DNA from: a phage
Strand: one strand, 5' to 3'
Length of the DNA: 64,000 nucleotides
Sequence record: PX667085.1
The notes below the pieces were generated by a model. The model worked only from the letters and a program-made list of their open reading frames with translations, was not told the DNA's origin and did no database searches. Below are positions 1-12,892 of this stretch, in pieces. The translations under genes and the position numbers were made by a program. Positions within the stretch are counted from its first letter, which is position 1, and every line of letters starts with the position of its first letter.

Positions 1-1
1 A

Positions 2-283
2 CTTCAATGTTTTGATGATATTCCTCTTTTTGTTTTCCGTTTAATCTATGTGAAAGAAGAAGATTTGCGAATGGTTTGTAAATTGTGCAACTCTATTCTT
101 GCTTATGCAGACAAGCAAGGTATATCTTTTGAAGAAGCGAAAGCTGAAAAAGAAGCGATAGCTTTGTGCAGAGCTAAGAAAGATAAAGCATGGCTGAAGA
201 AGCGTAAAATAGAACCTGAAAGCACAGTAGCGAAACGCCGCAAACAAATAGTCAAAATCCTATTGCAGGAAATTGAAAGTTAG
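2..283 (+). CDS. hypothetical protein, 3' portion (reading frame open to window start)
   Basis: Frame has no stop between base 2 and 283; ORF table entry 50..283 starts at an internal GTG. Confidence 0.4.
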   Translation, partial: LQCFDDIPLFVFRLIYVKEEDLRMVCKLCNSILAYADKQGISFEEAKAEKEAIALCRAKKDKAWLKKRKIEPESTVAKRRKQIVKILLQEIES

Positions 284-319
284 TATAAGATAACTATACT
301 AAAAGAGAGAGGAGGTTTT

Positions 320-928
320 ATGCAGATAGTATGTGATTGGGATTTAGTTGTGGCTCCATTAGATGTTGCTTGGTTAGAATGGTTGAATAAGATTAGTGGA
401 CTTGGTGTTAAGATAGACACATTCACAAAAAATGCAGACTATGATCTTACCAACTACTTTCCTGGTTTCAGGGAGGAGTTCAATATAAATCCTTACGGAT
501 TTCTGGATAATCCTCATCTCTATGATACAATGGGTTTTGTTCCAGGTATGCCAGATTTCTTAAAGTATGTTTCAAGGAAAGGTAGCAATCTTTTGATCGC
601 AAGTGTGACAAAAGGTGGTCACTTAAGTTCTAAACATAAGCATGTTTTAAGAACATTAGATACGATTGATTTTAGCAAAGGATCTGGCAACGGCTTTTTT
701 GCTACGAAAGAAAAATACTTATTGCCTTGTGATATAGCAATAGATGACAGGGCTGATAACCTACTATATTTTCCAGATGAAGTGGTTAAAATATATTTTA
801 ATACGCCTTATAAAGATAACCATCTAGAAGAACTAAAGAAAAAACCAAATGTTGTGATCACAGGTTTAGAAGATCAGTGGCTAACATGTTTGGATGTTTT
901 TAACACTTTGAACAATTTTAAAAACTAA
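320..928 (+). CDS. HAD-superfamily hydrolase, putative 5'(3')-deoxyribonucleotidase
   Basis: N-terminal DWD (HAD motif I-like), C-terminal IDDRADN (motif IV-like); RBS GAGAGGAGG upstream. Confidence 0.5.
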   Translation: MQIVCDWDLVVAPLDVAWLEWLNKISGLGVKIDTFTKNADYDLTNYFPGFREEFNINPYGFLDNPHLYDTMGFVPGMPDFLKYVSRKGSNLLIASVTKGGHLSSKHKHVLRTLDTIDFSKGSGNGFFATKEKYLLPCDIAIDDRADNLLYFPDEVVKIYFNTPYKDNHLEELKKKPNVVITGLEDQWLTCLDVFNTLNNFKN

Positions 929-937
929 GGAGAAAAA

Positions 938-1936
938 ATGACAAAACAGATTTCGGCTAGTATTATTGCGCATTCCATCACTGAAGACGGAAAAGAGATT
1001 GTAACTTTTGAACTAGAATATCCACGTATTATTCATTCAGAATTGATGACTCACCGCCTGTTCAGTCGTAATGCTGCTTCTAGCCGTGCTATACCTGTTA
1101 AAACACTGATTGAAATGGTGCGAAATCAACCTGCTCGTCCTTATCGTTTTGGGGCTAACCAACCTGGTATGCAGGATAAAGGTGTTGATCACGATGCTCT
1201 TATTGATGCAGGTTATACTGCTCAAGAGTGGTGGGATCTTGCCGCGCTTAGTGCAGCACGTTTTGCAGAAGAATTCTCTTTGGCAGGGTACCACAAACAA
1301 GTTGCAAACCGTCTTCTGGAACCTTTCCAACGAATTAAAACAGTTCTGACAGCAACAGAATATGAAAATTTCTGGTGGCTACGTGATGACAAAGAAGCCG
1401 ATCCTACTATCGAAGCTTTGGCTAAAGAGATGCACAAAGAGTATGAAGGATCTACACCAGAAGTGCTGAAACCAGGGCAATGGCACACACCTTATGTAGA
1501 CCATTTCTATGATACTATTGGCACAGAAGGTGACGATCATTTTGTTTTTGGTGGATACTATGTTCAAGATGAATCTGGAGAAGTTGTTGTGCTTACTTTG
1601 GAAGAAGCCAAAGCTATTTCAGCTTCGTGTTGTGCACAGGTTAGTTATCGTCGTTTAAATGCAACTAAAGATAAAGCTTTAGATATCTATGGTCGCTTGC
1701 TGACTGGGCGCAAGGTTCATGCTTCTCCGTTTGAACATCAAGCCACTCCAATGCAAGAAACATACGAACAATATGGAGAGAACTGTTTTGAAGATTTGTT
1801 TATCAATGCTCCTTGGGATTTTAACTCTTGGGAACCAGGTATTACCCATGTAGATCGTAATGGTAAGTTTTGGTCTGGCAATTTCAAAGGTTGGATTCAA
1901 CATCGTCAACTTTTAACAAATCATACTAAATGGTGA
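938..1936 (+). CDS. thyX: flavin-dependent thymidylate synthase ThyX-like
   Basis: HRLFSRNAASSR resembles ThyX RHR-x7-8-S signature; sits immediately upstream of nrdA where T4 has td. Confidence 0.55.
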   Translation: MTKQISASIIAHSITEDGKEIVTFELEYPRIIHSELMTHRLFSRNAASSRAIPVKTLIEMVRNQPARPYRFGANQPGMQDKGVDHDALIDAGYTAQEWWDLAALSAARFAEEFSLAGYHKQVANRLLEPFQRIKTVLTATEYENFWWLRDDKEADPTIEALAKEMHKEYEGSTPEVLKPGQWHTPYVDHFYDTIGTEGDDHFVFGGYYVQDESGEVVVLTLEEAKAISASCCAQVSYRRLNATKDKALDIYGRLLTGRKVHASPFEHQATPMQETYEQYGENCFEDLFINAPWDFNSWEPGITHVDRNGKFWSGNFKGWIQHRQLLTNHTKW

Positions 1937-1952
1937 TCTGTTTAAATAGTTA

Positions 1953-1980
1953 TTGACTTTAGTATTAGTTTTAGTATAAT
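1953..1980 (+). promoter_or_regulatory. sigma70-type promoter TTGACT-16-TATAAT
   Basis: Near-consensus -35 and -10 hexamers read directly. Confidence 0.6.
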
Positions 1981-2034
1981 ATAGCACAATACTGGGAGGA
2001 GGTGAGTCCTCCCATTCAAAATGAAGGAGAAAAT

Positions 2035-2445
2035 ATGTCATTAGTAAATACTACAACTTGGGCTACCGTAAGCATGTCTACTGTAATGTCTACCCCTATC
2101 TGGAAACTAGAATCAAATAAACACAATGGCAATATCCCACACGAGAAACAAAATGCTGTTATTAGAGCGTCGCTTGTAATGCTGGGTATGGCTGAAGATT
2201 CACACTATTCTGTTGAGCGTAATGTGAATATCCGAAGCAATAACGATAAGCGAGTAGTGTTTGCAAATACAACGCTTTTCACTTTCCCTGTTTCACCTAA
2301 TTGTGGTTTTAAACGAATCTATCAAGAAAATGATATTTTTCATTTTGGTGATGAAGAATTTACAGGTTGGGGTGCGTCACATATTAAGATGGATGATTTC
2401 GGTAACTCTTATGATCCTGCGAAAGCAGATGATACTAATCAATGA
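2035..2445 (+). CDS. hypothetical protein
   Basis: ORF; ATG at 2035 preceded by GAAGGAG (table start 2002 is GTG). Confidence 0.5.
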   Translation: MSLVNTTTWATVSMSTVMSTPIWKLESNKHNGNIPHEKQNAVIRASLVMLGMAEDSHYSVERNVNIRSNNDKRVVFANTTLFTFPVSPNCGFKRIYQENDIFHFGDEEFTGWGASHIKMDDFGNSYDPAKADDTNQ

Positions 2446-2453
2446 GAGGGACA

Positions 2454-2696
2454 ATGACTGATAATAAATATGAAGGCTGTGAAATCGAAGTCTATTTTGA
2501 TGAAACTGTTGGTTGTAATGTAACTGTAATTCTAGACACTTCAAAACGTTTATCTCCTAAAAGACAAGAAGCAGACCGTCGAGCAAAAGCAAAAGGGTTT
2601 GATGACATAACTCATTTTGAAGGTTTTCTATATGCTAATGGACTTTTTAATGAAATGAAGTTCGGTTATGATGTAGATGTTTTGAATATGCATTAA
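2454..2696 (+). CDS. hypothetical protein
   Basis: ORF; second ATG has RBS GAGAGGGA. Confidence 0.45.
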   Translation: MTDNKYEGCEIEVYFDETVGCNVTVILDTSKRLSPKRQEADRRAKAKGFDDITHFEGFLYANGLFNEMKFGYDVDVLNMH

Positions 2697-2712
2697 TAAT
2701 AGGGAGGAGAAG

Positions 2713-4959
2713 TTGATTCGTTTTGTAACTAAATCTAACGGTAAGACAGAGGAGTTTAATCCAGAAAAACTTCGCAAGTGGTCTGAATTTGCAGCAGGTA
2801 AACTAAACTGGTCTGAAATTGAATTAGAAGCTGTGAAGCGGTGTTATGACGGTGTGTCTACACGTGATCTGCATAAAGCAATGATTGCAGCGTGTATTGA
2901 CAAGAAAACACAAGCTTACAGTGATATGGCAGGAAGACTTCTTCTGGGTATGATTTACAAACAGGCTCATGGGGGATACCACAGTATCCCTTCACTGAAT
3001 ACCTTTTATCATGATATGGTAGAACGTGGACATTGGGCTAAAATGGATTATACTGATGAAGAGATCAAAGAAATCGGTAAGATTGTAAAGCATAATAAAA
3101 ATCTAACTTATGGTTATTCTGTTTTACGTCAGATGGTAGATAAATATCTTATTCGAGATGCAGTAAACGATGTTGTGCATGAGTCTCCACAGTTTCTTTT
3201 CATTGGTATCGCAATGAAGGTTATGGAGATCCAACCAAAAGAACGCCGTATAGAAGATATTAAAAAACTTTATACTTATGTTAGCGATCTTAAGATTAAT
3301 CTGCCATCGCCGTATCTGACAACTCTACGAACTCCAATCAAAGGAAGTGCGTCTTGTTGTTTATTCCGTGCAGACGATACGGCAGAGTCTTTAGCCATTG
3401 CTAACTACTTAGCTCATGAGTATACGTTGAATAACGCAGGTATTGGTGTTAATCTTCAAACCCGTGCCACAGGTCAAGGTGTTAAGAATAATCGTATTAT
3501 TCATGGTGGTCTTCTTCCGTATCTGAAATGGATGGAAGATAGTGTTGGAGCTTCGAAGCAAGCAAGCCGTGGAGGTAGTGCTACAGTTACCTTTACCATA
3601 CTTGAACCAGATTTCGACGATCTGATTCGACTGAAGAATCCAACAACACCTATAGATAAACGAGTAGACAAACTGGATTATTCTATTGTTGTTAACCGTT
3701 CATTCTTGCGTCGAGCAGCAAAAAACGAAGATTGGATGTTAGTTAGTTGTGATGATGCTCCTGAACTTTATGAAGCTTTGTATAAAAGTGAAGAAGAGTT
3801 TGATGCAGTTTATGACAAAGTAAGCCGTCGTCGCATTAAGAAAAAATTTGTTAAGGCTCGTGATCTTCTGACAGAGATTATTGTTCAACGTGCAGAAACA
3901 GGACGTATTTACATGTTCTTTGCTGACAACGTTAACAACCATACACCTTTCCTGGATACGGTGTATCAATCAAACCTGTGTCAAGAGATTTTCTTACCGA
4001 CTAAAGCTTTCCACAATATGCCGGATCTCTTTACTGGTGAGAATACTGAAGATCAAGAATTGGCTTTATGTTTCTTATCTTCTATTGTTGCTGGTCGTGT
4101 ATTACCTGAAGAATATGAAGATGTTGCATACTACACTGTATTGACAATTGACAACGTTATTGAAACAATGGATTATCCATTTAAACATAACGAAATAACT
4201 GCTAAAGCACGTAGATCTATTGGTGTAGGCATTACAAACTTAGCGCATTACTTGGCAAGTAATTTTGTAAATTATTCAGATGCTTATGCTAAAAAATTAA
4301 TGCATGAACTTGCAGAACGTCATTACTTTTGGTTGGCAAAAGCCTCTCTGCGTCTGGCTAAGGAAAAAGGTAATGCGGAGTGGATCGATAAGACCAAATG
4401 GCCTCAAGGTTGGCTACCAATTGACACTTATGCTAAAACAGTAGATAGTATCGGTAATTTTGATCTTAAAATGGACTGGGAAGGCTTACGTGCTGAAATC
4501 ATTGAACAAGGTGGTATTCGTAACAGTGTCTTGGCTGCTATTGCACCTAATGAGTCCAGCAGTTTGGTAAGCAATACTACTAACTCTCTGTATCCTGTTC
4601 GTGATACCATTATGTATAAACAAAGTCAGAAAGGCAGTGTATTATTTATTGTTCCAGACTATGAAAAACTGAAAATGTTCTACCAATCTGCCTGGGATAC
4701 TCCGGCTAAAGATCTTGCAGAAATGTATGGTATTTTTACCAAGTTTACGGACCAAGGAATTTCTTGTGATTCTTGGTTAGATTATTCTAAATTGGTAGGG
4801 GGACGTTTATCAGTTAAAGAAGAGATGAAATTTATTTTGAACTTTGCTAGACTGGGTGGTAAGTCATTGTATTACCTTAATAGTAGAACAAAATCAGCAG
4901 ACTCTTTAGCACAAGAAGATAACCTGAAAGAGTCTGGATGTGAGGGTTGCAGCATGTAG
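2713..4959 (+). CDS. nrdA: ribonucleotide reductase class Ia large subunit
   Basis: 748 aa; N-terminal ATP-cone-like VTKSNGKTEEFNPEKL; C-terminal Cys pair CEGC; TTG start after GGGAGGAG. Confidence 0.9.
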   Translation: MIRFVTKSNGKTEEFNPEKLRKWSEFAAGKLNWSEIELEAVKRCYDGVSTRDLHKAMIAACIDKKTQAYSDMAGRLLLGMIYKQAHGGYHSIPSLNTFYHDMVERGHWAKMDYTDEEIKEIGKIVKHNKNLTYGYSVLRQMVDKYLIRDAVNDVVHESPQFLFIGIAMKVMEIQPKERRIEDIKKLYTYVSDLKINLPSPYLTTLRTPIKGSASCCLFRADDTAESLAIANYLAHEYTLNNAGIGVNLQTRATGQGVKNNRIIHGGLLPYLKWMEDSVGASKQASRGGSATVTFTILEPDFDDLIRLKNPTTPIDKRVDKLDYSIVVNRSFLRRAAKNEDWMLVSCDDAPELYEALYKSEEEFDAVYDKVSRRRIKKKFVKARDLLTEIIVQRAETGRIYMFFADNVNNHTPFLDTVYQSNLCQEIFLPTKAFHNMPDLFTGENTEDQELALCFLSSIVAGRVLPEEYEDVAYYTVLTIDNVIETMDYPFKHNEITAKARRSIGVGITNLAHYLASNFVNYSDAYAKKLMHELAERHYFWLAKASLRLAKEKGNAEWIDKTKWPQGWLPIDTYAKTVDSIGNFDLKMDWEGLRAEIIEQGGIRNSVLAAIAPNESSSLVSNTTNSLYPVRDTIMYKQSQKGSVLFIVPDYEKLKMFYQSAWDTPAKDLAEMYGIFTKFTDQGISCDSWLDYSKLVGGRLSVKEEMKFILNFARLGGKSLYYLNSRTKSADSLAQEDNLKESGCEGCSM

Positions 4960-5600
4960 GAGGTCAAATGCTCAAAGGTAAACGTGCAGTGACCGTTACT
5001 ACCGAAAGGGGAGAAATCCCCTTAGTAGTTGATGTAGAAAGACGATTATTTGTAGACGGGAAGCCCGACCCGTCTTACAAAGCTTGGAAAAACATGTTCG
5101 AAAGAGCCTATAAAATGGAACAAGCAAGACCTGGGTATACAGGTGTGACGGTTTGTGACGAGTGGTTTATGTTTTCAAACTTCGACATGTGGTATCAAGA
5201 AAACTTTGTAGCAAACTTTGTTCTGGACAAAGACCTTGTACTTGAAGGTAATACGGTCTATTGTCCAGCGTATTGTAGGTTTGTTCCAGCATATGTGAAT
5301 ACTCTGTTAAGTTACTCAAAAAGGACGGAAAGAAAATCCCTTTTAGGGGTAACTGTAAGAAAATCCGATGGTAAGATTTCTTCTAAATCATCTGGACACA
5401 AAGGAAAGCATTTAGGTTACTTCGCTACAGAGGAAGAGGCACACTTCGCTTGGCTAAAAGATAAAGCTAAGTCAATCAGGGAAACAGCGGATCGTTACAA
5501 AGAGGAAGAACATTTTTATCCAGAGGTGTACAACACTCTTGTAAACAAGGCGGATTTCTATTGGCACCTGGCGGAAACAAAAACAGTATTTCGAGGCTAA
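4947..5600 (+). CDS. homing endonuclease-like protein with AP2-type DNA-binding domain (mobE-like position)
   Basis: C-terminal GVTVRKSDGK...HLGYFATEEEAHFAW resembles AP2 domain; inserted between nrdA and nrdB as mobE is in T4. Confidence 0.5.
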   Translation: MQHVGGQMLKGKRAVTVTTERGEIPLVVDVERRLFVDGKPDPSYKAWKNMFERAYKMEQARPGYTGVTVCDEWFMFSNFDMWYQENFVANFVLDKDLVLEGNTVYCPAYCRFVPAYVNTLLSYSKRTERKSLLGVTVRKSDGKISSKSSGHKGKHLGYFATEEEAHFAWLKDKAKSIRETADRYKEEEHFYPEVYNTLVNKADFYWHLAETKTVFRG

Positions 5601-5604
5601 ATAT

Positions 5605-5626
5605 AAAGGGGCTTCGGCCCCCTTTT
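5605..5626 (+). terminator. intrinsic terminator
   Basis: AAAGGGGCTTCGGCCCCC hairpin followed by TTTTATT. Confidence 0.7.
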
Positions 5627-5643
5627 ATTAAGGAGAATTTTAA

Positions 5644-6729
5644 ATGGCAGCAATTAATTTACACAATGAAGTTTACAAAACAGGAAAATATCCAGTATTT
5701 TTGGGGGAGCAATTAGGGATCTTTGATTCTGTTAACGTAACTTATCCAGAAATGCACAAACTCTACAAACTTCAAAAAGCACAAGATTGGGATGAAAACG
5801 AAGTTAATCTGGATCAGACACGTAAAGATTTCGTAGCTTGTTCTAAAAACAACTATGATGTTATGATTAAAAACTTATCGTTCCAATGGGAAAATGATTC
5901 TCTTGCAAAATCAATCATCACTTTGTTCTCTCCATTCTTGAGTAACAATGAAGCCTGTGCTATGATGATGAAGCAGAGTGAAATGGAAGTTCTCCATGCG
6001 TTAACGTATTCTGAAATAATCCGTCAATGTACTCCAGATCCAATTGAAGTCATCAATCAGATTATGATTAATGATAAAATTTTCAATCGTATGGGTATCA
6101 TTGCTGATATCATGGGTCAGTTGGAAGAAGCTGGTCATAAGTATGCTCTAGGATTGATTGAAGCTAACGATGAACTTCGCTTGCTGATTCTTAAAGGGAT
6201 GGTAGCCCTGATTGGATTAGAAGGTATTCAGTTTATATCTTCCTTCTCTGCTACTTTTGCTATGGCAGAACAACAACTGTTTGTTGGGGCTTGTAAACTG
6301 ATCCAGAAAATTATGCTAGATGAAATCTTGCATGTTAAGATGGACTATGCTGTAATTGATGCATTGATGCATGACCCAATTTGGCGTAAAATTTACGAAG
6401 ATAATATTGAAGAGTTGACTTTGATCCTCGACACTGTTGTTGAACAAGAGGAACAGTGGTGTGACTACCTGTTTAGTGAAGGTCGTTTTATTGTAGGTCT
6501 TAACGCCGAATTGTCTAAACAGTGGGTTTATTTCAATGCTGCTCCTATTTATCGTCGATTGAAAATGAAAGCCAAGTTTAAAGCACCTAAACATAGTCCT
6601 TTAGCTTGGATGGAAAAATGGTTGAATCCTGATTTGATTCAGTCAGCAGCCCAAGAGATTCAGTTAACTAATTACAAATTGAATTCAGCTAACAAAGATC
6701 TCTCTGATGATGAGGAGCTTGACTTCTAA
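5644..6729 (+). CDS. nrdB: ribonucleotide reductase small subunit
   Basis: 361 aa, position after nrdA, size and context typical of class Ia beta subunit. Confidence 0.8.
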   Translation: MAAINLHNEVYKTGKYPVFLGEQLGIFDSVNVTYPEMHKLYKLQKAQDWDENEVNLDQTRKDFVACSKNNYDVMIKNLSFQWENDSLAKSIITLFSPFLSNNEACAMMMKQSEMEVLHALTYSEIIRQCTPDPIEVINQIMINDKIFNRMGIIADIMGQLEEAGHKYALGLIEANDELRLLILKGMVALIGLEGIQFISSFSATFAMAEQQLFVGACKLIQKIMLDEILHVKMDYAVIDALMHDPIWRKIYEDNIEELTLILDTVVEQEEQWCDYLFSEGRFIVGLNAELSKQWVYFNAAPIYRRLKMKAKFKAPKHSPLAWMEKWLNPDLIQSAAQEIQLTNYKLNSANKDLSDDEELDF

Positions 6730-6938
6730 TGATTTTGAGATGTGTTGGTATAATCGACACATTCAAAGACGTTTTTGACAAAGGGGCTTCTTATGAAGCC
6801 TCCGAAATGAAGAATGGTTTTTGTGATGTATTCGGTAAACGCCTGAAGAAAAACGGCGATCCTTGGCTAGGAGTTATGTCTTGTGGTCATATTATTGTAA
6901 ATGGTGTTGCCAAGTTTGAAATAATTAAGGAGGAATAA
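6729..6938 (+). CDS. hypothetical protein
   Basis: 69-aa ORF abutting nrdB stop. Confidence 0.45.
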   Translation: MILRCVGIIDTFKDVFDKGASYEASEMKNGFCDVFGKRLKKNGDPWLGVMSCGHIIVNGVAKFEIIKEE

Positions 6939-7090
6939 TGGCTGAAAAACTTATTTTTTGTCCTGTGTGTGGTGGGACTGGACAGATGGAAGTGGAAATT
7001 ATGGTAACATTTCCTTGCCTGAATTGTCATGGTGAAGGACGAGTAGTAGTCTTTGAAAAAGAAGGGTTGGAGGTAGAAGATGGAGAGTGA
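6938..7090 (+). CDS. small zinc-ribbon protein (50 aa)
   Basis: CPVCGG...CLNCHG; RBS AAGGAGGAA; below ORF-table size cutoff. Confidence 0.4.
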   Translation: MAEKLIFCPVCGGTGQMEVEIMVTFPCLNCHGEGRVVVFEKEGLEVEDGE

Positions 7091-7244
7091 AAAAGAGTAT
7101 GTCCGAATTCCACGAGAATTAACAGATCACATTGCAGAAGCAATAGCTTTCGAAGCTAGATGTTGTGGAGGCATTGCTTACGATATTTATGAAGCAATTA
7201 TTAAAGCTGCTCAAGAAGAGGAGGAGATGAAAAATGGGTATTGA
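7080..7244 (+). CDS. hypothetical small protein (54 aa)
   Basis: Short ORF in compact array, overlapping neighbours. Confidence 0.3.
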   Translation: MESEKEYVRIPRELTDHIAEAIAFEARCCGGIAYDIYEAIIKAAQEEEEMKNGY

Positions 7245-7560
7245 TATCGAATGGCGTATGTTACAGGGTGCACCTTTTAATAAGTGGGAAGAGGTTGTAG
7301 GAGAAGATCCTAGAATTGAAGAAGAATTTGATGGAGATTTTAACTGGTTCTTACAAGAAGGTCTTGACTTAAGTCGCATCTCTCCTTTCTACGATGCTGA
7401 TGAGTCTTATTGCATATATGGTATTTATTTAGAAGGCGGAGAAGGAAGCGTAGCTGTAGATCTTGAGCAAGTAAATGAGAATGCAAAAGAAGCCTATGCA
7501 GAGCTACTTGAAAAATATAACATTAAAACGGAAACTATTATTTCTCAACATGTCTGGTAA
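7234..7560 (+). CDS. hypothetical protein
   Basis: 108-aa acidic ORF. Confidence 0.5.
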   Translation: MGIDIEWRMLQGAPFNKWEEVVGEDPRIEEEFDGDFNWFLQEGLDLSRISPFYDADESYCIYGIYLEGGEGSVAVDLEQVNENAKEAYAELLEKYNIKTETIISQHVW

Positions 7561-7569
7561 GGAGAGAAA

Positions 7570-8136
7570 ATGAAAGTAGAAAAAACAAAAATTGAAGGTG
7601 CGGTAATTATCAAACCAGACGTTTATAAAGATGATCGTGGTTTCTTTTTAGAAACATACAATGAACAAAAATACGAAGATATCATTGGTAAACAAACTTT
7701 CGTTCAAGATAATATGTCTAAATCAAACTTCGGTGTTTTGCGAGGAATGCACTTTCAAACAAATAATCCGCAAGGTAAGCTTGTTCGTTGTGTAAGTGGA
7801 GAAGTATTGGATTTCGCTGTAGATTTACGTAAAGATAGTCCAACTTACGGTGCTTGGGACGGTGTTGTTCTTCGTGCACGACACCATACGCAGTTTTGGC
7901 TTCCCCCTGGTTTGGCACATGGTTTTATAGTTTTGAGTATGGACGCTATCTTTGAATACAAATGCACAACTCCATACGACCCTTCTAGCGAACAAAGTTT
8001 ACGTTGGGATGATCCTGACATAGGGATCGATTGGGGCTTCGATATGATTTTTGACGAAGGTTTTAAACCTATCTTATCAACAAAAGATGCAATGGCTAAA
8101 TCTTTTCAACAGTTGCGTAGTGAGGGTGTATGCTAA
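7570..8136 (+). CDS. rmlC: dTDP-4-dehydrorhamnose 3,5-epimerase
   Basis: DDRGFFLETY and RGMHFQ motifs typical of RmlC cupin. Confidence 0.8.
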   Translation: MKVEKTKIEGAVIIKPDVYKDDRGFFLETYNEQKYEDIIGKQTFVQDNMSKSNFGVLRGMHFQTNNPQGKLVRCVSGEVLDFAVDLRKDSPTYGAWDGVVLRARHHTQFWLPPGLAHGFIVLSMDAIFEYKCTTPYDPSSEQSLRWDDPDIGIDWGFDMIFDEGFKPILSTKDAMAKSFQQLRSEGVC

Positions 8137-8972
8137 CATATCTGGTATTGGGTGGTAATGGACAACTGGGACAAGCTTTACGTAAAGTGGTTCCTTCTAA
8201 TGTATCTTTAATTTATCCTAAAGAACGTGTAGATATTACAAATTTTGAAGCTGTGCGAAACGCTATTGTTGAAGATTATGTAGACGGTGTTATTAACTGC
8301 GCTGCTTATACGGCTGTAGATAAAGCAGAACATGATTTTGCTACTGCTTTGGCTGTTAATGCGTATGGACCTGCAAATATTGCAGCAGTGTGCAGCAAAC
8401 TTAAAATTGATTTTGTGCATATTTCTACAGACTATATTTTTAATTACTCTCACCCTATTTTTGAAGATACTACACCTAACCCAATAAACAATTATGGGTA
8501 TACGAAAGAACTTGGTGAAAAAATGGTGCGAGGAGTTAACCCAAATGCATATATTATTCGAACAGCCTCGGTATATAGCGAATTTGGAAATAACTTTCTA
8601 AAAACGATGTTGTCTCGCTATAATGATGGACAACGTGATTTTATTATTGTTGCTGATCAGTTCTCTTGTCCAACATATGCTCCAGATTTAGCAGAAGCTA
8701 TTTTTGAAGTATTAAAAACAGGTTGGTCAAGGTCTGTTAAGACTTACCATTTTGCAGGAAGCCATTTTATTTCTTGGGCGGAGTTTGCGGAAAAGATCTT
8801 GACACAGATGCCAGAACCTGTTAAGATATCGGCGGTATCAGCTTCAACCTATAATGCTCCAGCAGCACGTCCGGTGAAGTCACAACTAGTAACCAGTCAC
8901 TACCTTACAAAATCAGATTTAAATAAAGGTATTGAACAGTCTTTAGCAGTATTACTTAATAAGGAGAGGTAA
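8130..8972 (+). CDS. rmlD: dTDP-4-dehydrorhamnose reductase
   Basis: N-terminal Rossmann LVLGGNGQLGQAL; length 280 aa; follows rmlC. Confidence 0.75.
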   Translation: MLTYLVLGGNGQLGQALRKVVPSNVSLIYPKERVDITNFEAVRNAIVEDYVDGVINCAAYTAVDKAEHDFATALAVNAYGPANIAAVCSKLKIDFVHISTDYIFNYSHPIFEDTTPNPINNYGYTKELGEKMVRGVNPNAYIIRTASVYSEFGNNFLKTMLSRYNDGQRDFIIVADQFSCPTYAPDLAEAIFEVLKTGWSRSVKTYHFAGSHFISWAEFAEKILTQMPEPVKISAVSASTYNAPAARPVKSQLVTSHYLTKSDLNKGIEQSLAVLLNKER

Positions 8973-9232
8973 TGGAATTTGTAATTTTTGGTAAACCTAA
9001 CTGTCAATTTTGCGAAATGTCAAAACAACTATTAACCATGCGCAATAAACAGTTTGAATATTTAAGTCTTGATCAAGACTATGATTTAGAATCAATGACT
9101 AAAACAGTTGTTGATCTTACCGGAGTTCCTCCACGCACATTTCCACAAATTCTATCTGAAGTGAACGGGGAGGTAACATACGTAGGCGGTTTTACCGAAC
9201 TGCGTGATCTCATGGCTCAAATTGCGGAGTAA
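8972..9232 (+). CDS. glutaredoxin/thioredoxin-like protein (NrdC/NrdH-like)
   Basis: FGKPNCQFCEMSK CxxC active-site motif, 86 aa. Confidence 0.7.
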   Translation: MEFVIFGKPNCQFCEMSKQLLTMRNKQFEYLSLDQDYDLESMTKTVVDLTGVPPRTFPQILSEVNGEVTYVGGFTELRDLMAQIAE

Positions 9233-9237
9233 CAATT

Positions 9238-9387
9238 ATGAAAAGTAAACAGAAACGTAAGATCTTTTCTCGTGCTTTGGCAAATGAGCTGAAGTCCAAC
9301 ATAAAGAAAACGAAACCAAAACGTGAAACTTCTCCAGAACATCTGTTGTTTAACGAGTTGGATCACGGAGTAGGAGACGACGAATAG
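9238..9387 (+). CDS. hypothetical basic small protein (49 aa)
   Basis: Short ORF filling gap between glutaredoxin and endolysin. Confidence 0.35.
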   Translation: MKSKQKRKIFSRALANELKSNIKKTKPKRETSPEHLLFNELDHGVGDDE

Positions 9388-9394
9388 GAAGTAA

Positions 9395-9895
9395 ATGGCT
9401 AAAGTAGTAGATGAGTTTGATATGCTACGAGTCGATGAAGGACTGAAGCTTACTGTTTATCAAGACCATCTTGGTTATTGGACAGTCGGCATAGGACACC
9501 TTCTGACTAAAATAAAAGATAAAGCAAAGGCTATTCAAATCTTAGATAATCTTCTTGGTCGTAAGACTAATGGGGTTATCACAGAAAAAGAAGCCCGTCA
9601 AATCTTTGCTGATGATGTTGCAAAAGTGAAGAGAGACATAAAAAACAGTACTATCTTATCACCAATCTATGATAAGGTTAGTGATACTCGTAAATTGGGA
9701 ATAATCAACATGGTTTTCCAGTTGGGGTTAAAAGGTGCTGAAGGGTTTCAAAATAGCTTGACTTTAATCAGCAATGCATATTATACTCAAGCAGGTAAAA
9801 ACATGCGTAAAAGCCGATGGTATAGCCAGACGCCAAACCGTGCTGAACGAGTAATTAAAGTTCTGACTTCTGGAACTTTAGATGCTTACAACTAA
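9395..9895 (+). CDS. e: endolysin, T4 lysozyme family (muramidase)
   Basis: EMLRVDEGLKLTVYQD..YWTVGIGHLLTK...INMVFQ...KSRWYSQTPNRAERVI aligns by eye with T4 gene e lysozyme along its length. Confidence 0.9.
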   Translation: MAKVVDEFDMLRVDEGLKLTVYQDHLGYWTVGIGHLLTKIKDKAKAIQILDNLLGRKTNGVITEKEARQIFADDVAKVKRDIKNSTILSPIYDKVSDTRKLGIINMVFQLGLKGAEGFQNSLTLISNAYYTQAGKNMRKSRWYSQTPNRAERVIKVLTSGTLDAYN

Positions 9896-9896
9896 T

Positions 9897-9915
9897 AAAG
9901 GGGCTTCGGCCCCTT
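9897..9915 (+). terminator. intrinsic terminator
   Basis: AAAGGGGCTTCGGCCCCTT hairpin. Confidence 0.6.
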
Positions 9916-9932
9916 CTAAAAGGAGTGCTACT

Positions 9933-10691
9933 ATGGGAAATAAAACCGCAGCTAAAACACAACGGCAGAAACTGGCTAATTCAGCAAAGATTGAAAGCCG
10001 TTATGCAGCAAAAGCGGTAGGTAATGACGATTACCGTTTAGATGAATTTATGCCTGAAGGGGACCAAAATAAGATTGTTCAAAGCATGATTTGGAATGAT
10101 CTGACTGTTGTAAATGCTCCGGCAGGGACTGGTAAAACCTCTGTTGCTTTATGGAAAGCTTTGCAGATGCTTCGTTCAGGAGACTTCCGTAAACTACTTT
10201 TTATCAAGAACCCTACTGAAGTCGGAGATGATCAGATTGGTTTCTTGTCGGGGGATAAAACAGATAAACTAGCAGCACACTATGAATCTACAAAACGTAT
10301 TTTCCAGCAATTCATGACAGCCAACAAATTGGAAAACGATATTGGATCAGGTAAGATCGAATTGAATATTCCTAACTATTTGTTAGGGGCTACCCTGGAT
10401 AATACAATCGTCATTATTGACGAAGCACAACTTATGTCAACAGAAACACTTAAACTTCTTATTGAACGTGCAGGTATTAATACGCATGTTATTGTATTAG
10501 GCGATGTTCGCCAGACATATGCAATTAAAAAACGTAGCAATGGTCTGCATCAAATTTTAGAACTTTTATATCCAGAAAATGAAGAAGGTGTTCGTGAGCC
10601 AATTGTAGATTTTATTGGATACGTTGAACTGACAACGGACGATAATAAACGTGGACGTTTGTCTAAACTGATTACTGAAGTGTTTATTTAA
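9933..10691 (+). CDS. phoH: PhoH-like ATPase
   Basis: Walker A NAPAGTGKTSVAL; start moved to ATG after the terminator hairpin. Confidence 0.85.
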   Translation: MGNKTAAKTQRQKLANSAKIESRYAAKAVGNDDYRLDEFMPEGDQNKIVQSMIWNDLTVVNAPAGTGKTSVALWKALQMLRSGDFRKLLFIKNPTEVGDDQIGFLSGDKTDKLAAHYESTKRIFQQFMTANKLENDIGSGKIELNIPNYLLGATLDNTIVIIDEAQLMSTETLKLLIERAGINTHVIVLGDVRQTYAIKKRSNGLHQILELLYPENEEGVREPIVDFIGYVELTTDDNKRGRLSKLITEVFI

Positions 10692-10726
10692 TAACATGGC
10701 AGGGAAGCCATTTATAAGGAGGATTG

Positions 10727-11227
10727 ATGGGTGTAGCAACAATAGCTATCGGAAGAAGCGGTATAGATGAGTGCTATCAAACGGGACTCGTAAAACCTAA
10801 CGAATTTCGTCAAATTTGTGTAAACCATATTGAAAAAGAGATTGCTCTTACTTTAGAGAATATGACCCTCCGAGATAAACTGGAAATGTTTAAATGTTGG
10901 TGTCTAGGAGAAGATTGGCTTTTAAACCATTTTCAAGAACTTTCTGATAGTAAAGAAAGCTTGTTTGATTGTATAATAGGAATAGCTGGCTCCGATCCTA
11001 GCCTTCTGCACATAACAGAAGAAGAGGCGAAGTTACTGTTCTTAAGTAATTTGTTTAATAAGAAAGCACTGCTTGTTCGTGATTGCAGTGATCTTCTTAA
11101 TAACCCGCTCGCAACGTCTGATCAAATTTTTGTTGACAAAGAGACACTACGTGCGATAGAATACATCTGCAAATACGTGAATGGCGGGAAAGCGGTTCTT
11201 AAAACATTAACAGAGGAGGAAGAATAG
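10727..11227 (+). CDS. hypothetical protein
   Basis: ORF with RBS AAGGAGGA. Confidence 0.55.
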   Translation: MGVATIAIGRSGIDECYQTGLVKPNEFRQICVNHIEKEIALTLENMTLRDKLEMFKCWCLGEDWLLNHFQELSDSKESLFDCIIGIAGSDPSLLHITEEEAKLLFLSNLFNKKALLVRDCSDLLNNPLATSDQIFVDKETLRAIEYICKYVNGGKAVLKTLTEEEE

Positions 11228-11919
11228 TGACGACAATTATTGCAACCAAAAATAAGATTTTGAGTGACGGTAAGGTAACTTTTGGTGGACGTGTAGATTC
11301 TATTAATTTCAAAAAGGTCCGAAAAATTGGAGATTACCTTGTAGGTGGTGCTGGTCGTCTGACATCCGTGCTTTCTTTCTTTCAATGGTTTGAACAAAAT
11401 CTACAGTGCGAAGCAGCACGTGATGCTGTCCCTGGTTTGATGATTCACTCTGATCCAGATAAAGAAGATGAAGAGTTTATTGCACTTGTTGTTCATCCAG
11501 ACGGACGTATTTTCCTGCACGAAGGTAACAACCCAACACGTGCATATCCGATTGATGAAGAATATTATGCAGTAGGGAGTGGGTCAGATTTTGCTTTAGC
11601 TGCTCTTGATGCAGGGGCAACACCAGAACAGGCTATGGAAGTAGCTAAAAAGCGAGATGCTTTTTCTGGTGGTGAAACATTTATTGAAGAACAAGACGAG
11701 ATTATTGAATTAACAGATGATGATTTAGAAAACTTCTCCAAAGAAGAATTGATCAATCTTTTGAAATTCGGTAATCCCTACGGTGAAGAAGAACCTCGTA
11801 ACGTGGCAGGTAACGAGGCGGATACTGAAGAAAAATCTGTTGCAGAAAACAACTTGACTTCTAAATCTGAAAATATTAATCTCGTAAATGTGGCGGATTT
11901 CGAAGAAACCGCTATTTAA
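11227..11919 (+). CDS. HslV/proteasome-like Ntn-hydrolase with acidic C-terminal tail
   Basis: Begins M-TTIIATKN (Thr right after Met), GGAGR and YAVGSGSDFALAAL resemble HslV; GTG start after GGAGGAAGAA. Confidence 0.5.
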   Translation: MTTIIATKNKILSDGKVTFGGRVDSINFKKVRKIGDYLVGGAGRLTSVLSFFQWFEQNLQCEAARDAVPGLMIHSDPDKEDEEFIALVVHPDGRIFLHEGNNPTRAYPIDEEYYAVGSGSDFALAALDAGATPEQAMEVAKKRDAFSGGETFIEEQDEIIELTDDDLENFSKEELINLLKFGNPYGEEEPRNVAGNEADTEEKSVAENNLTSKSENINLVNVADFEETAI

Positions 11920-11925
11920 CAAACT

Positions 11926-11946
11926 GCCCCTTCGGGGGCATTTCTT
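11926..11946 (+). terminator. intrinsic terminator
   Basis: GCCCCTTCGGGGGC hairpin then ATTTCTT. Confidence 0.6.
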
Positions 11947-11964
11947 AAACATAGGAGATTAATA

Positions 11965-12399
11965 ATGTTACAAGTTCCTGCTAAGTTTGTTGAAGGCGCT
12001 ATCCACTCTTACCGTCAAACATGTAAGAGAGCAAGAAACTGTTTAGATGGTCTGGTGGCAAAAACCTATACTGTTGAAAAGAAAAAACGTTGGTTTGGCA
12101 AAGATGTTTACGAAGTTAATATTTTTGGTGAACATAAACTAAACCACGATACTCCTGAAAACATGTTAGAAATATTTCTAAGAGATGATAAAATATCTCC
12201 TATGGATTACCAACTTTTAAAATTTTATGATTCTTCTTTGGCTATTGATAAGTTTGTTGAAGATATTCTGTCTAGAAAAACAGATAAAAACACTTATCCT
12301 CTAGAGGCTGATCAAATAGGATTATTAAACGAGATTTCATCTTTTAAAGAGTTGGATAATATTACAAAAGAGGAGATTTTAGATGGCATTAGATTATGA
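11965..12399 (+). CDS. hypothetical protein
   Basis: 144-aa ORF. Confidence 0.55.
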   Translation: MLQVPAKFVEGAIHSYRQTCKRARNCLDGLVAKTYTVEKKKRWFGKDVYEVNIFGEHKLNHDTPENMLEIFLRDDKISPMDYQLLKFYDSSLAIDKFVEDILSRKTDKNTYPLEADQIGLLNEISSFKELDNITKEEILDGIRL

Positions 12400-12892
12400 T
12401 CGCCCAACGAGCGATTATTATCCGACACCGCAAAAAGCAATCAATAGTTTGTTTAGTGTTATAGATTTCAAAAATCTAAAGGAAGAAGGTTGGGTTTTTG
12501 CAGAACCTTGCAGAGGTGAAGCTGAAGCGATTTATCGCCATTTTCCTGAAGGTTCAGAATATTGCGAACTTGAAGAAGGTAAAGATTATTTTAGTCATGA
12601 ATGGGAAAATCGTCCCGACATTATAATTACAAACCCTCCATTTAAGTTAGCAATGGAGTTCTTGGAAAAGAGCTTAAAAGAGGCGGATGTTTGTATTTAT
12701 CTTCTTCGGTTGGGCTTCTTGGAGTCAAAGAAACGACGAGAGTTCCATCAAAAGAATCCACCAACAAACCTTATAGTCCTTTCAGAACGGCCTTCGTTTG
12801 TTGCAGGTGGAACAGATAAGACAGCATACGCTTGGTATGTATACGACCCAAAGAATCGTTTGGGCCTCTCTCAACCATTTTATTTTGTTTAA
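12383..12892 (+). CDS. putative DNA N6-adenine methyltransferase (small, NPPF motif)
   Basis: IIITNPPF catalytic motif IV of amino-methyltransferases. Confidence 0.55.
   Translation: MALDYDRPTSDYYPTPQKAINSLFSVIDFKNLKEEGWVFAEPCRGEAEAIYRHFPEGSEYCELEEGKDYFSHEWENRPDIIITNPPFKLAMEFLEKSLKEADVCIYLLRLGFLESKKRREFHQKNPPTNLIVLSERPSFVAGGTDKTAYAWYVYDPKNRLGLSQPFYFV

Follow-up and report, generated by a model that had tools for sequence, protein, structure and literature searches.

The rmlC-rmlD gene pair found in the window (the whole stretch of 64,000 nucleotides of phage DNA that was analysed, sequence record PX667085.1) is probably the surviving half of an ancestral rmlB-rmlA-rmlC-rmlD operon, which would have been cut at GGAGA repeats and would now be fed by the host toward dTDP-L-rhamnose. 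In nucleotides the window is 99.6% identical to Escherichia phage ECO340P1, and every match lies within the Stephanstirmvirinae; by these matches it is assigned to Phapecoctavirus, as DNA of a phAPEC8-like E. coli myophage. As a sequence feature the pair is ordinary, and dozens of GenBank records already carry annotations for rmlC and rmlD. Olsen et al. 2020 (PMC7552041) drew attention to the pathway and to its unusual place among the nucleotide-metabolism genes, and it was reported in 2023 that ESCO37 is without rmlA and rmlB (PMC10269720). A literature search on rhamnosylated phage DNA, Stephanstirmvirinae glycosyltransferases and phage rmlC/rmlD found no functional study. The question of how a lytic coliphage uses dTDP-rhamnose is sharpened by the observations presented here, namely an operon that is ancestral, its repeated reduction, a selected half that is the one a host cannot always replace, and a co-distributed cluster of glycosyltransferases.

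Gene neighbourhood of the pair

The genes around the pair, with the annotation of nrdB taken from the syntenic genes in relatives, are the following.

2713-4959, nrdA
5644..6729, + strand, nrdB, class Ia ribonucleotide reductase beta subunit
7234..7560, + strand, conserved 108-aa ORF (phrog_15453), directly upstream of the pair and the left flank of the putative deletion
7561..7565, + strand, single GGAGA Shine-Dalgarno element, the putative deletion scar (from junction alignments)
7570..8136, + strand, rmlC, dTDP-4-dehydrorhamnose 3,5-epimerase, 188 aa (matches to PF00908 and TIGR01221)
8130..8972, + strand, rmlD, dTDP-4-dehydrorhamnose reductase, 280 aa (matches to PF04321 and TIGR01214)
8972..9232, + strand, glutaredoxin gene (PF00462, E 1.8e-09), its start overlapping the rmlD stop, translationally coupled
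9395-9895, lysozyme

An earlier sequence-only reading of the window had placed the pair between the ribonucleotide reductase genes and glutaredoxin/endolysin, and nrdA, nrdB, glutaredoxin and lysozyme are indeed at the expected positions. The close-packed gene run begins with nrdB, continues with four small ORFs and ends with rmlC, rmlD and grx; within it, rmlD shares 7 nt with rmlC and 1 nt with the start of the glutaredoxin gene. The 108-aa ORF is syntenic in ESCO5, phAPEC8, phi92 and phiWec186. A terminator-like hairpin is present at 5608-5621, just upstream of nrdB. Consensus scans of positions 1-12000 found 42 promoter-like sites, compared with 35.7 in shuffled sequence (no excess), and seven terminator-like sites, compared with 7.4, such that the transcription unit is not delimited by these scans. 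The base composition is uniform, at ~38% GC, and rmlC and rmlD match the phage in this respect.

Identity and catalytic residues of RmlC and RmlD

RmlC matches PF00908 with an E-value of 7.8e-67 and the NCBIfam equivalog TIGR01221 with 225.3 bits (cut-off 155.75), in an alignment that spans positions 1-174 of the 176 in the profile. When aligned with Salmonella RmlC (1DZR, E 7.6e-56), its residues H61, K70, Y130 and D173 correspond to H63, K73, Y133 and D170, respectively, being the His-Asp dyad, the tyrosine acid and the lysine. These residues are also kept in the RmlC proteins of phi92 and phiWec186. The mono-epimerase relatives (NovW, EvaD-like and ChmJ) match far more weakly, with E-values of 1e-25 to 1e-29. 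The motifs pointed out in the sequence-only reading were located at residues 21-30 (DDRGFFLETY) and 58-63 (RGMHFQ) of RmlC, and the Rossmann signature proposed for the N terminus of RmlD was found as GGNGQLG at residues 8-14, with the GxxGxxG glycines G8, G11 and G14 all kept.

RmlD matches PF04321 (E 2.8e-73), and its T100, Y122 and K126 are equivalent to T104, Y128 and K132 of E. coli RfbD, which form the SDR Thr/Tyr/Lys triad. Its best solved relatives are the B. anthracis (3SC6, E 1e-44) and C. acetobutylicum (1VL0, E 1e-43) proteins, with which the STDY and YGxxK motifs align, and it is closer to this short Gram-positive type than to Salmonella RmlD. Its score against the equivalog TIGR01214, 239.1 bits, is narrowly above the cut-off of 224.05, and the product could therefore also be the C4-epimeric dTDP-6-deoxy-L-talose. 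Loss of catalytic residues, which would have spoken against a working pair, was looked for in these alignments, and none is lost in either protein. RmlC and RmlD form a genuine couple that appears to be functional. When compared with the bacterial rfb pathway and with rffH/rffG of the enterobacterial common antigen (ECA) pathway, the enzyme families and the catalytic residues are the same, and the same chemistry is expected, but the window encodes only steps 3 and 4, and its genes lie outside any polysaccharide cluster.

Absence of rmlA and rmlB

In tblastn searches of the window and of the whole iGC_PHA_EC001 genome, RmlA gave no match better than E 0.056, and RmlB gave only the generic SDR similarity to RmlD; the sole RmlB match in the window (E 0.001, at 8133-8441) is RmlD itself. 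The two-gene relatives are also missing from the matches to the rmlB-rmlA DNA of ESCO5. This is in agreement with the proposal that the first two genes are absent from the window, and the rest of the genome, judging by a two-gene relative with 98% identity whose genome is complete, also holds neither of them. It had further been considered that the pair could belong to a complete, host-derived rml operon elsewhere. A complete operon does exist in sister phages, but not in this genome, and it is of an old phage lineage rather than a recent capture from a host.

The junction left by the missing genes

The four-gene relatives have two GGAGA elements, one before rmlB and one before rmlC, with a 1876-bp rmlB-rmlA segment between them. 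The junction in the window reads TGGTAAGGAGAGAAAATG, to be compared with TGGTAAGGAGAACTGATG at the rmlB start of phAPEC8 and with GCGGAGAGAAAATG at its rmlC start, 1876 bp further. This junction is identical in the window and in the nine other two-gene phages examined with the same arrangement, and one SNP in the upstream 108-aa ORF is fixed between two-gene and four-gene phages. A variant junction, perhaps from a separate deletion, is found in phage MirsaeidiM_Esher1.

A single recombination event joining the two Shine-Dalgarno repeats of 5 nt would have cut out exactly 1876 bp, and such an excision would leave rmlC with an intact ribosome-binding site and within the same transcription unit. 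The last two steps alone would then remain because this 1.9-kb deletion took out the first two. From the alignments, the rmlC-rmlD pair is best described as a secondary deletion derivative of a complete phage rmlBACD operon and not as a designed minimal module. The opposite direction, with rmlBA as an insertion in the four-gene phages, was rejected, as all four genes occur at this site in the sister genus, and likewise in the divergent phiWec clade. As a separate observation, rmlBA behaves as an exchangeable cassette.

Distribution and origin of the operon

The complete operon occupies the same site in about two thirds of the Phapecoctavirus records and in the phiWec clade, and the whole operon is found in 54 of the 56 records of Justusliebigvirus (phi92-like phages). 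Examples with the four genes at the syntenic site are ESCO5, phAPEC8, UP17, SKA64, 3A1, phi92 and the divergent phiWec186 and PsgM04F. At ≥95% identity, rmlCD is present in 65 Phapecoctavirus records and rmlBA in 42; the contiguous two-gene arrangement occurs in 24, including ESCO37, anhysbys, nepoznato, ZCKP1 and ECO340P1. The locus in the window, between nrdB with four small ORFs and glutaredoxin, is the same as in phAPEC8, ESCO5, other Phapecoctavirus phages and phi92, and it differs from their operons in being without the 1876-bp rmlB-rmlA segment. The nucleotide identity of rmlC and rmlD to other Phapecoctavirus phages is 96-99.8%; to phi92 (Justusliebigvirus), the amino acid identities are 63% for RmlC and 54% for RmlD.

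The operon dates back to the ancestor of the subfamily and has been reduced independently at least three times. Independent damage is seen in DIJ07P2, which has a deletion, and in the Justusliebigvirus phage cardinal, where the rml operon is destroyed. Clearly, the operon is deletion-prone and dispensable. RmlD homologues with >50% identity are, where contigs suffice to judge, all on contigs of ~113-157 kb, and identity to the best cellular homologues is ≤44%. When compared with the K-12 enzymes, RmlC is 50% identical to RfbC and RmlD 31% identical to RfbD. A recent capture of the pair from a host was rejected on these low identities, on the phage-sized contigs of the nearest homologues and on a GC content that matches the phage. 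By the same comparisons, the rml operon is assigned to an old phage lineage. The haplotype with two genes occurs over a wide geographic range and has entered diverse backgrounds by recombination. Two-gene and four-gene phages recombine freely.

Selection on the retained pair

Each of the 17 rmlC and rmlD ORFs examined is intact, and neither frameshift nor stop is seen in any of the 11 two-gene phages. Within the two-gene phages the dN/dS values are 0.03 (rmlC) and 0.13 (rmlD), very similar to the values of 0.02 and 0.11 within the four-gene phages, and the variants private to the two-gene phages comprise 13 nonsynonymous and 30 synonymous changes, the neutral expectation being ~3:1. Both genes are still under purifying selection in the two-gene phages. 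Part of this signal may come from four-gene backgrounds, given the free recombination between the two forms.

These data bear directly on whether rmlCD is a remnant that became functionless once rmlBA was lost and whose decay is yet to come. Such a remnant would fit an operon that is dispensable and deletion-prone, with separate deletions in DIJ07P2 and cardinal, and it would fit the listed hosts, according to which both forms grow on the same K-12 host. The intact genes, the low dN/dS values, the private variants far from the neutral ratio and the spread of the haplotype by recombination argue against it and make it highly improbable.

Supply of the substrate by the host

A phage without steps 1 and 2 must draw on dTDP-4-keto-6-deoxy-D-glucose of the host. 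This intermediate would be made by host RffH and RffG of the ECA pathway, or by RfbA and RfbB if present. Phage RmlC would epimerise it at C3 and C5, and phage RmlD would reduce it at C4 with NAD(P)H, generating dTDP-L-rhamnose. Of 5426 complete E. coli genomes, 5309 carry rffG-rffH, and rfbC is detectable in 2348 (43%, a lower bound at the DNA level). The suggestion of the earlier reading that host dTDP-sugar intermediates are diverted is thus strengthened by the predicted pathway, as the near-universal rffH/rffG would be the source for a pair that is without the first two steps.

Steps 1 and 2 of the phage would be redundant in essentially every E. coli, and steps 3 and 4 would be missing in roughly half of the strains. 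This redundancy of the first two steps, together with the frequent lack of the last two, would explain the repeated loss of rmlBA and the retention of rmlCD. The rml pathway as such may be accessory and not essential. A similar reliance on the host for the rest of a 6-deoxyhexose pathway is seen for the partial sugar-nucleotide pathways of other viruses (cyanophage RmlC/RmlB), and RmlC homologues with 41% identity occur in Synechococcus phages and in Sphingomonas phage PAU (cf. PMC12801897). Those lineages are unrelated, and the partial state described here differs in being traceable to a specific, recent deletion.

A glycosyltransferase cluster as the candidate consumer

The proposal to look for glycosyltransferases elsewhere in the genome proved fruitful, as four such genes are present in the relatives, outside the window. 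They form a cluster of two GT-B paralogues, one GT-A and one small glycosyltransferase, which adjoins the gene for primase/helicase in the vicinity of the DNA polymerase gene, ~22 kb beyond the right end of the window. The GT-A gene has 135 full-length matches, which by organism name are phages of the Stephanstirmvirinae type, and this count is near the number of records with rmlCD (127-133). The AlphaFold model of GT-A (pLDDT 88.9) has the GT-A fold, with a DDD motif. In a Foldseek search the model finds generic GT-A neighbours only (TM 0.5 or less), including TarP, a prophage-encoded transferase acting on wall teichoic acid, and RmlT, a rhamnosyltransferase of Listeria, so that the acceptor cannot be read from the structure. 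Sequence searches of the PDB with three of the glycosyltransferases gave nothing meaningful, and in none of the four is there a hydrophobic stretch at the level typical of a transmembrane helix.

By their distribution, which parallels that of rmlCD, the four soluble glycosyltransferases are likely the consumer of dTDP-rhamnose. The link between rml and these genes is a co-distribution in a single clade, for which shared ancestry alone would give the same pattern. In cardinal, where the rml operon is destroyed, all four glycosyltransferase genes are intact, and therefore the transferases are not strictly dependent on rhamnose made by the phage. It may be that dTDP-rhamnose feeds the cluster and that a cytoplasmic acceptor is glycosylated; the evidence leans toward such an acceptor rather than toward the envelope or DNA.

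Possible uses of dTDP-rhamnose

Alteration of LPS, O-antigen or ECA by the phage dTDP-rhamnose and glycosyltransferases, for example blocking superinfection or adsorption to debris, would be the canonical use of this sugar in bacteria. It would also suit phages with several tail fibres that recognise surface glycans (PMC8594841), and TarP and RmlT are among the structural neighbours of GT-A. Such remodelling is very unlikely when it is considered that these phages are strictly lytic, leaving little time for surface turnover, that the four transferases are without a transmembrane-type hydrophobic stretch, and that a flippase, a polymerase and an initiating transferase are absent from the annotated complete two-gene genome. 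A use without any acceptor can also be envisaged, in which RmlC and RmlD make dTDP-L-rhamnose as an inhibitor of RmlA, closing the flow of dTTP into sugar nucleotides, starving ECA or O-antigen synthesis and sparing dTTP for the replication of phage DNA. For this the two-gene form alone would be enough, since the hosts make the substrate, and in all relatives the operon is placed together, and apparently co-transcribed, with the thymidylate synthase, ribonucleotide reductase and glutaredoxin genes. dTDP-L-rhamnose is a known feedback inhibitor of RmlA-type thymidylyltransferases, the allosteric inhibition of RmlA reportedly going back to Melo and Glaser in 1965 and Blankenfeldt et al. in 2000. 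However, the ancestral and still commonest form of the operon encodes RmlA and RmlB, which consume dTTP and so run counter to its sparing, and the phage RmlA of the relatives is itself in the feedback-sensitive family, being 63% identical to RffH. This metabolic role is considered rather unlikely.

Glycosylation of DNA by this pathway is the hypothesis of Olsen et al. 2020 (PMC7552041), with dTDP-rhamnose as the donor for a rhamnosylated modified base, like the glucosyl-hydroxymethylcytosine of T4. It is in agreement with the location of the operon in a nucleotide-metabolism module by thyX, nrdAB and glutaredoxin, and with that of the glycosyltransferase cluster, next to the gene for primase/helicase and not far from that for DNA polymerase; T-even DNA glucosylation and the arabinosyl-hmC of RB69 also rely on phage glycosyltransferases encoded in a DNA-metabolism region. 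GT-A weakly matches the TET-associated glycosyltransferase family PF20691 (E 1e-3, which is below the cut-off) and, over ~40 residues, the beta-glucosyl-HMC alpha-glucosyltransferase family phrog_842 (E 7.6e-6). This resemblance to DNA glycosyltransferases, including the T2/T6 beta-glucosyl-HMC alpha-glucosyltransferase family, is weak and confined to the nucleotide-binding N terminus. Moreover, PMC8594841 describes the phi92-like phages, in which the operon is complete and the glycosyltransferases are the same, as exceptionally susceptible to restriction-modification 'despite a putative dTDP glycosylation machinery'. In the complete two-gene genome, the annotation lists neither a dCMP/dUMP hydroxymethylase nor TET/JBP nor a 5-hmdU kinase; ThyX is the only entry of this sort among its 279 features, many of the ORFs being hypothetical. 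The differences from the T-even system concern the hydroxymethylase, which is not annotated here, the restriction sensitivity of the relatives and the donor, which would be a dTDP-sugar and not a UDP-sugar. Rhamnosylation of DNA is considered unlikely.

As the sister genus is reported to be highly restriction-sensitive, a protein is favoured over DNA as the acceptor, and we tentatively suggest that the sugar is transferred to a protein, possibly a virion protein. The wider idea that the Stephanstirmvirinae run a rhamnosylation of their own, in which the rml operon and the four glycosyltransferases put a rhamnose-containing glycan on virion or other phage proteins, is more doubtful. If true, it would be the first such rhamnosylation system in phages of Gram-negative bacteria, and the four-, two- and zero-gene rml variants would be a natural allelic series for the outsourcing of precursor supply to the host ECA pathway. 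Glycosylated virions would be relevant to the immunogenicity and host range of these phages, which are widely used therapeutic candidates.

To our knowledge, mycobacteriophages encode no sugar-nucleotide pathway. Virion glycosylation has been described for Cluster F phages such as Che8, according to the account of Freeman et al. 2023 given in PMC11256854. Phage-encoded soluble glycosyltransferases outside the structural module are common to both systems, the Stephanstirmvirinae side being known from genes alone. The similarity of GT-A is weak, with tblastn matches to many Cluster F mycobacteriophage glycosyltransferases at E-values of 1e-7 to 1e-8 and 25-27% identity over ~130-180 residues.

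Family assignment and catalytic residues

The rmlC and rmlD open reading frames lie exactly where the sequence-only reading had placed them, and the identities that it gave them are borne out by Pfam and NCBIfam matches. Both scores are above the NCBIfam equivalog cut-offs (155.75 bits for TIGR01221 and 224.05 bits for TIGR01214), that of RmlD narrowly.

7570-8136, plus strand: rmlC, 188 aa; PF00908, E 7.8e-67; TIGR01221, 225.3 bits
8130-8972, plus strand: rmlD, 280 aa; PF04321, E 2.8e-73; TIGR01214, 239.1 bits

The alignment of RmlC with its Salmonella counterpart (1DZR, E 7.6e-56) spans the full length, and the catalytic residues His63, Lys73, Tyr133 and Asp170 of 1DZR correspond in it to His61, Lys70, Tyr130 and Asp173. 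Among solved structures, the nearest relatives of RmlD are those from Bacillus anthracis and Clostridium acetobutylicum (E about 1e-44), Salmonella RmlD being more distant (1e-28), and RmlD retains the G8xxG11xxG14 motif and the Thr100/Tyr122/Lys126 triad. The loss of catalytic residues, named earlier as evidence against the assignment, is not the case for either protein; as judged by score and catalytic residues, both genuinely belong to their assigned families, RmlC and RmlD.

Deletion of the rmlB-rmlA half

In the relative ESCO5, the syntenic site contains a 108-aa ORF, rmlB, rmlA, rmlC, rmlD and glutaredoxin, and the four-gene order is also found at this site in phAPEC8, UP17, SKA64 and 3A1, in the divergent phages phiWec186 and PsgM04F, and in phi92, the type phage of the sister genus Justusliebigvirus, in which 54 of 56 records have the whole rml operon. 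This shared site in Phapecoctavirus, phiWec186/PsgM04F and Justusliebigvirus marks the four-gene operon as the ancestral state of the Stephanstirmvirinae. Among Phapecoctavirus records, rmlCD is found at 95% identity or more in 65, of which 42 also have rmlBA at 95% or more, and the contiguous two-gene arrangement of the window is found in 24, each count including GenBank/RefSeq duplicates.

When the starts of rmlB (TGGTAAGGAGAACTGATG) and rmlC (GCGGAGAGAAAATG) of the four-gene phages are compared with the junction of the window (TGGTAAGGAGAGAAAATG), exactly 1876 bp are found to be absent, between two GGAGA Shine-Dalgarno repeats. The junction is clean, and rmlC is left with a ribosome-binding site at unchanged spacing. 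By this alignment, the missing rmlB-rmlA half is a deletion. The junction is common to the window and nine other two-gene phages of this type compared, and two-gene phages have been isolated in Denmark, France, Egypt, Indonesia and other places. One linked SNP, within the 108-aa ORF upstream, consistently separates two-gene from four-gene phages, while sites farther from the junction have been shuffled by recombination between them; a single old deletion, later spread into many backgrounds, fits this pattern.

The absence of steps 1 and 2, reported previously for the window, also holds beyond it, as checked in a relative. With phage RmlA/RmlB and K-12 RffH/RffG/RfbA as tblastn queries, the window and the complete iGC_PHA_EC001 genome (two-gene, 98% identical) yield no rmlA or rmlB, the sole match being the generic SDR similarity of RmlB to RmlD. 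The complete RmlABCD pathway is not encoded by this phage.

MirsaeidiM_Esher1 (PQ438048.1, positions 1480-1600 of its compared locus, L009) has a two-gene arrangement with another junction (TGGTAATTAATAAGGGGGGAGAGATG), a divergent allele of the upstream ORF and an rmlC that is only 92.8% identical; this junction may stem from a deletion of its own or from a recombinant that has since diverged. In phiWec186 (locus L004:4125-7400) and PsgM04F (locus L021:2591-5866), rmlB and rmlA have 88-96% nucleotide identity to ESCO5 (locus L001), and rmlC, rmlD, the 108-aa ORF and glutaredoxin only 67-76%. The boundary of this mosaic is sharp and lies at the rmlA/rmlC junction, as does that of the window deletion; given this identity step, the rmlBA segment behaves as a recently exchanged cassette.

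Recent capture of rmlCD from a host was also considered and is rejected, RmlC and RmlD being 50% and 31% identical, respectively, to the K-12 enzymes. RmlD homologues above about 50% identity are, where the contig is long enough to judge, all on phage-sized contigs (roughly 113-157 kb), and the best cellular homologues have at most 44% identity. Among the records that match the rml region in nucleotide sequence are phages labelled Campylobacter (B15, A150, C3 and others), Acinetobacter (ABPW7), Klebsiella (ZCKP1), Pseudomonas (PsgM04F) and Serratia (KKP_3264). In the region compared, most of them share 96-99% identity with Phapecoctavirus or Justusliebigvirus phages of E. coli (PsgM04F in rmlBA only); contamination, wrong labelling or a host range of unusual breadth may lie behind these host names.

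Other lesions and continued selection on rmlCD

The Phapecoctavirus DIJ07P2 (OZ035771.1, locus L008:1571-2640) has independently lost about 811 bp inside the operon, via the microhomology GTGCA(A/G)ACT, so that nt 917 of rmlB is joined to nt 717 of rmlA. RmlB is truncated (it ends ELGWSANY before a stop) and little of RmlA remains, while rmlCD is intact. In the Justusliebigvirus cardinal (PQ567651.1, 53305-54213; locus L024:2501-3409), residues 1-126 of RmlB run in frame into the C-terminal two thirds of RmlD. The recombination point is HISTD, an SDR motif common to both proteins (about 14 nt are identical), and rmlA and rmlC are deleted, which makes cardinal a natural rml-null phage. Given these independent lesions, the rml pathway is accessory.

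The operon is deletion-prone, yet rmlCD is kept, both genes being uninterrupted in 17 of the 17 Phapecoctavirus loci examined. The dN/dS values (Nei-Gojobori) are the same in the two-gene phages (0.03 for rmlC, 0.13 for rmlD) as in the four-gene phages (0.02 and 0.11), and the nonsynonymous:synonymous ratios of private codon variants (13:30 and 9:42, respectively) are both far from the roughly 3:1 expected of a dead gene. This is evidence that rmlCD is still under selection in the two-gene phages, although, since the two forms recombine, part of it may have arisen in four-gene phages.

Host supply and the glycosyltransferase cluster

In K-12, steps 1 and 2 are encoded twice, by rfbA/rfbB among the O-antigen genes and by rffH/rffG among those for the enterobacterial common antigen (ECA). 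Of 5426 complete E. coli genomes, 5309 carry the rffG-rffH segment, so that dTDP-4-keto-6-deoxy-D-glucose, the substrate of RmlC, should be available in nearly every host, whereas an rfbC homologue is detectable by blastn in only 2348 of the 5426, a lower bound. We infer that completion of the pathway (steps 3 and 4) is missing from roughly half of E. coli hosts. For a phage needing dTDP-rhamnose, loss of rmlBA would then be cost-free, and loss of rmlCD would not. The earlier proposal that the pair diverts host dTDP-sugar intermediates gains support from these counts.

Glycosyltransferases, which the sequence-only reading had proposed to seek beyond the window, are found in iGC_PHA_EC001, the annotated complete two-gene genome, as four adjacent genes at 87.4-90.5 kb. 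In the coordinates of this genome, the window runs from 22073 down to 1 and from 148445 down to 112338; the cluster, which adjoins a primase/helicase gene and is near the DNA polymerase gene, is about 22 kb past the right end of the window.

iGC_PHA_EC001 87378-90522 (locus L006:37378-40522), minus strand: glycosyltransferase cluster, by annotation; outside the window
In the cluster: two GT-B-like paralogues, 41% mutual identity; weak Pfam Glyco_trans_1 matches; phrog_7162
In the cluster: 227-aa protein; phrog_2456
In the cluster: 187-aa protein; phrog_14179

The four transferases are divergent and soluble; no typical hydrophobic stretch suggesting a transmembrane helix is present in any of them. 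In the 227-aa protein a DDD motif is invariant, and the AlphaFold model (pLDDT 88.9) is of the GT-A type. Among solved structures it comes nearest to A197 of STIV, a minimal viral glycosyltransferase (E 1e-5), followed by TarP, RmlT and other GT-A proteins, all with TM of at most 0.5. The 135 full-length tblastn matches of the 227-aa protein are, by organism name, Stephanstirmvirinae-type phages, and this number is close to that of the records with rmlCD (127-133). The cluster is the likely consumer of the phage dTDP-rhamnose; the link is circumstantial, being one of co-distribution within one clade, and cardinal keeps all four transferase genes intact (locus L025:5067-8243) despite its destroyed rml operon.

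Possible acceptors of the rhamnose

Glycosylation of DNA is the published suggestion (PMC7552041). However, phi92-like phages, with the full operon and the same transferases, are 'exceptionally susceptible' to restriction-modification systems in the BASEL study (PMC8594841), no base-hydroxymethylating enzyme is among the annotations of the complete iGC_PHA_EC001 genome, and the sole likeness to DNA glycosyltransferases is a weak, sub-threshold match over about 40 N-terminal residues. In the features that could be checked, this phage appears to differ from a T4-like DNA glycosylation system. Given these points, a protein acceptor, possibly a virion protein, is tentatively ranked first, as a possibility with clearly less than an even chance. 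Ranked below it are a purely metabolic role, in which RmlA-type enzymes would be feedback-inhibited or the ECA precursor diverted, then DNA, and then remodelling of the envelope. Annotated glycosyltransferases of Cluster F mycobacteriophages distantly match the 227-aa protein (25-27% identity, E about 1e-7 to 1e-8, tblastn), and a passage of PMC11256854, citing Freeman et al. 2023, describes glycosylated capsid proteins in the Cluster F1 phages Che8 and Rita.

The feature itself is already public, as dTDP-4-dehydrorhamnose epimerase and reductase annotations in many GenBank entries, and the absence of rmlA/rmlB has been noted for ESCO37 (PMC10269720). Added here are the structure and polarity of the deletion, which is found in about one third of Phapecoctavirus records, the signs that selection on rmlCD has continued, the argument from host complementation and the glycosyltransferase cluster as likely consumer. 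The significance rises only if the glycosylation target is the virion.

Gene neighborhood in the window

The GC content of the window is uniform, at about 38%. In the rml region, identity is 99.6% to Escherichia phage ECO340P1 and 98-99% to many further phages of the same genus, Phapecoctavirus, which comprises phAPEC8-like myophages of about 150 kb in the subfamily Stephanstirmvirinae. The neighbors are as first described, with the RNR genes on one side and glutaredoxin/endolysin on the other: thyX, nrdA, an HNH-like ORF, nrdB and four small ORFs are upstream of rmlC, and glutaredoxin, lysozyme and phoH are downstream of rmlD. The end of rmlC shares 7 nt with rmlD, whose stop codon in turn overlaps the start of the glutaredoxin gene; these genes are thus packed as one string.

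4947-5600, plus strand: 217-aa ORF between nrdA and nrdB, without a Pfam match; HNH endonuclease annotation in relatives
6938-7090, plus strand: 50-aa ORF with two CxxCxGxG motifs (CPVCGGTG, CLNCHGEG), DnaJ zinc-finger-like; conserved in all relatives at this place, between nrdB and rml
9882-10691, plus strand: PhoH-like ATPase, 3' of the lysozyme gene
11227-11919, plus strand: HslV-like peptidase homologue, 3' of the lysozyme gene; 'peptidase HslV family' or '20S proteasome' in relatives
12383-12892: ORF whose counterpart in relatives is annotated as a small DNA methyltransferase

The window shares the 217-aa ORF with ESCO5, iGC_PHA_EC001 and phi92, while anhysbys and 3A1 lack it; it looks like a mobile homing-endonuclease insertion polymorphism within the RNR operon.
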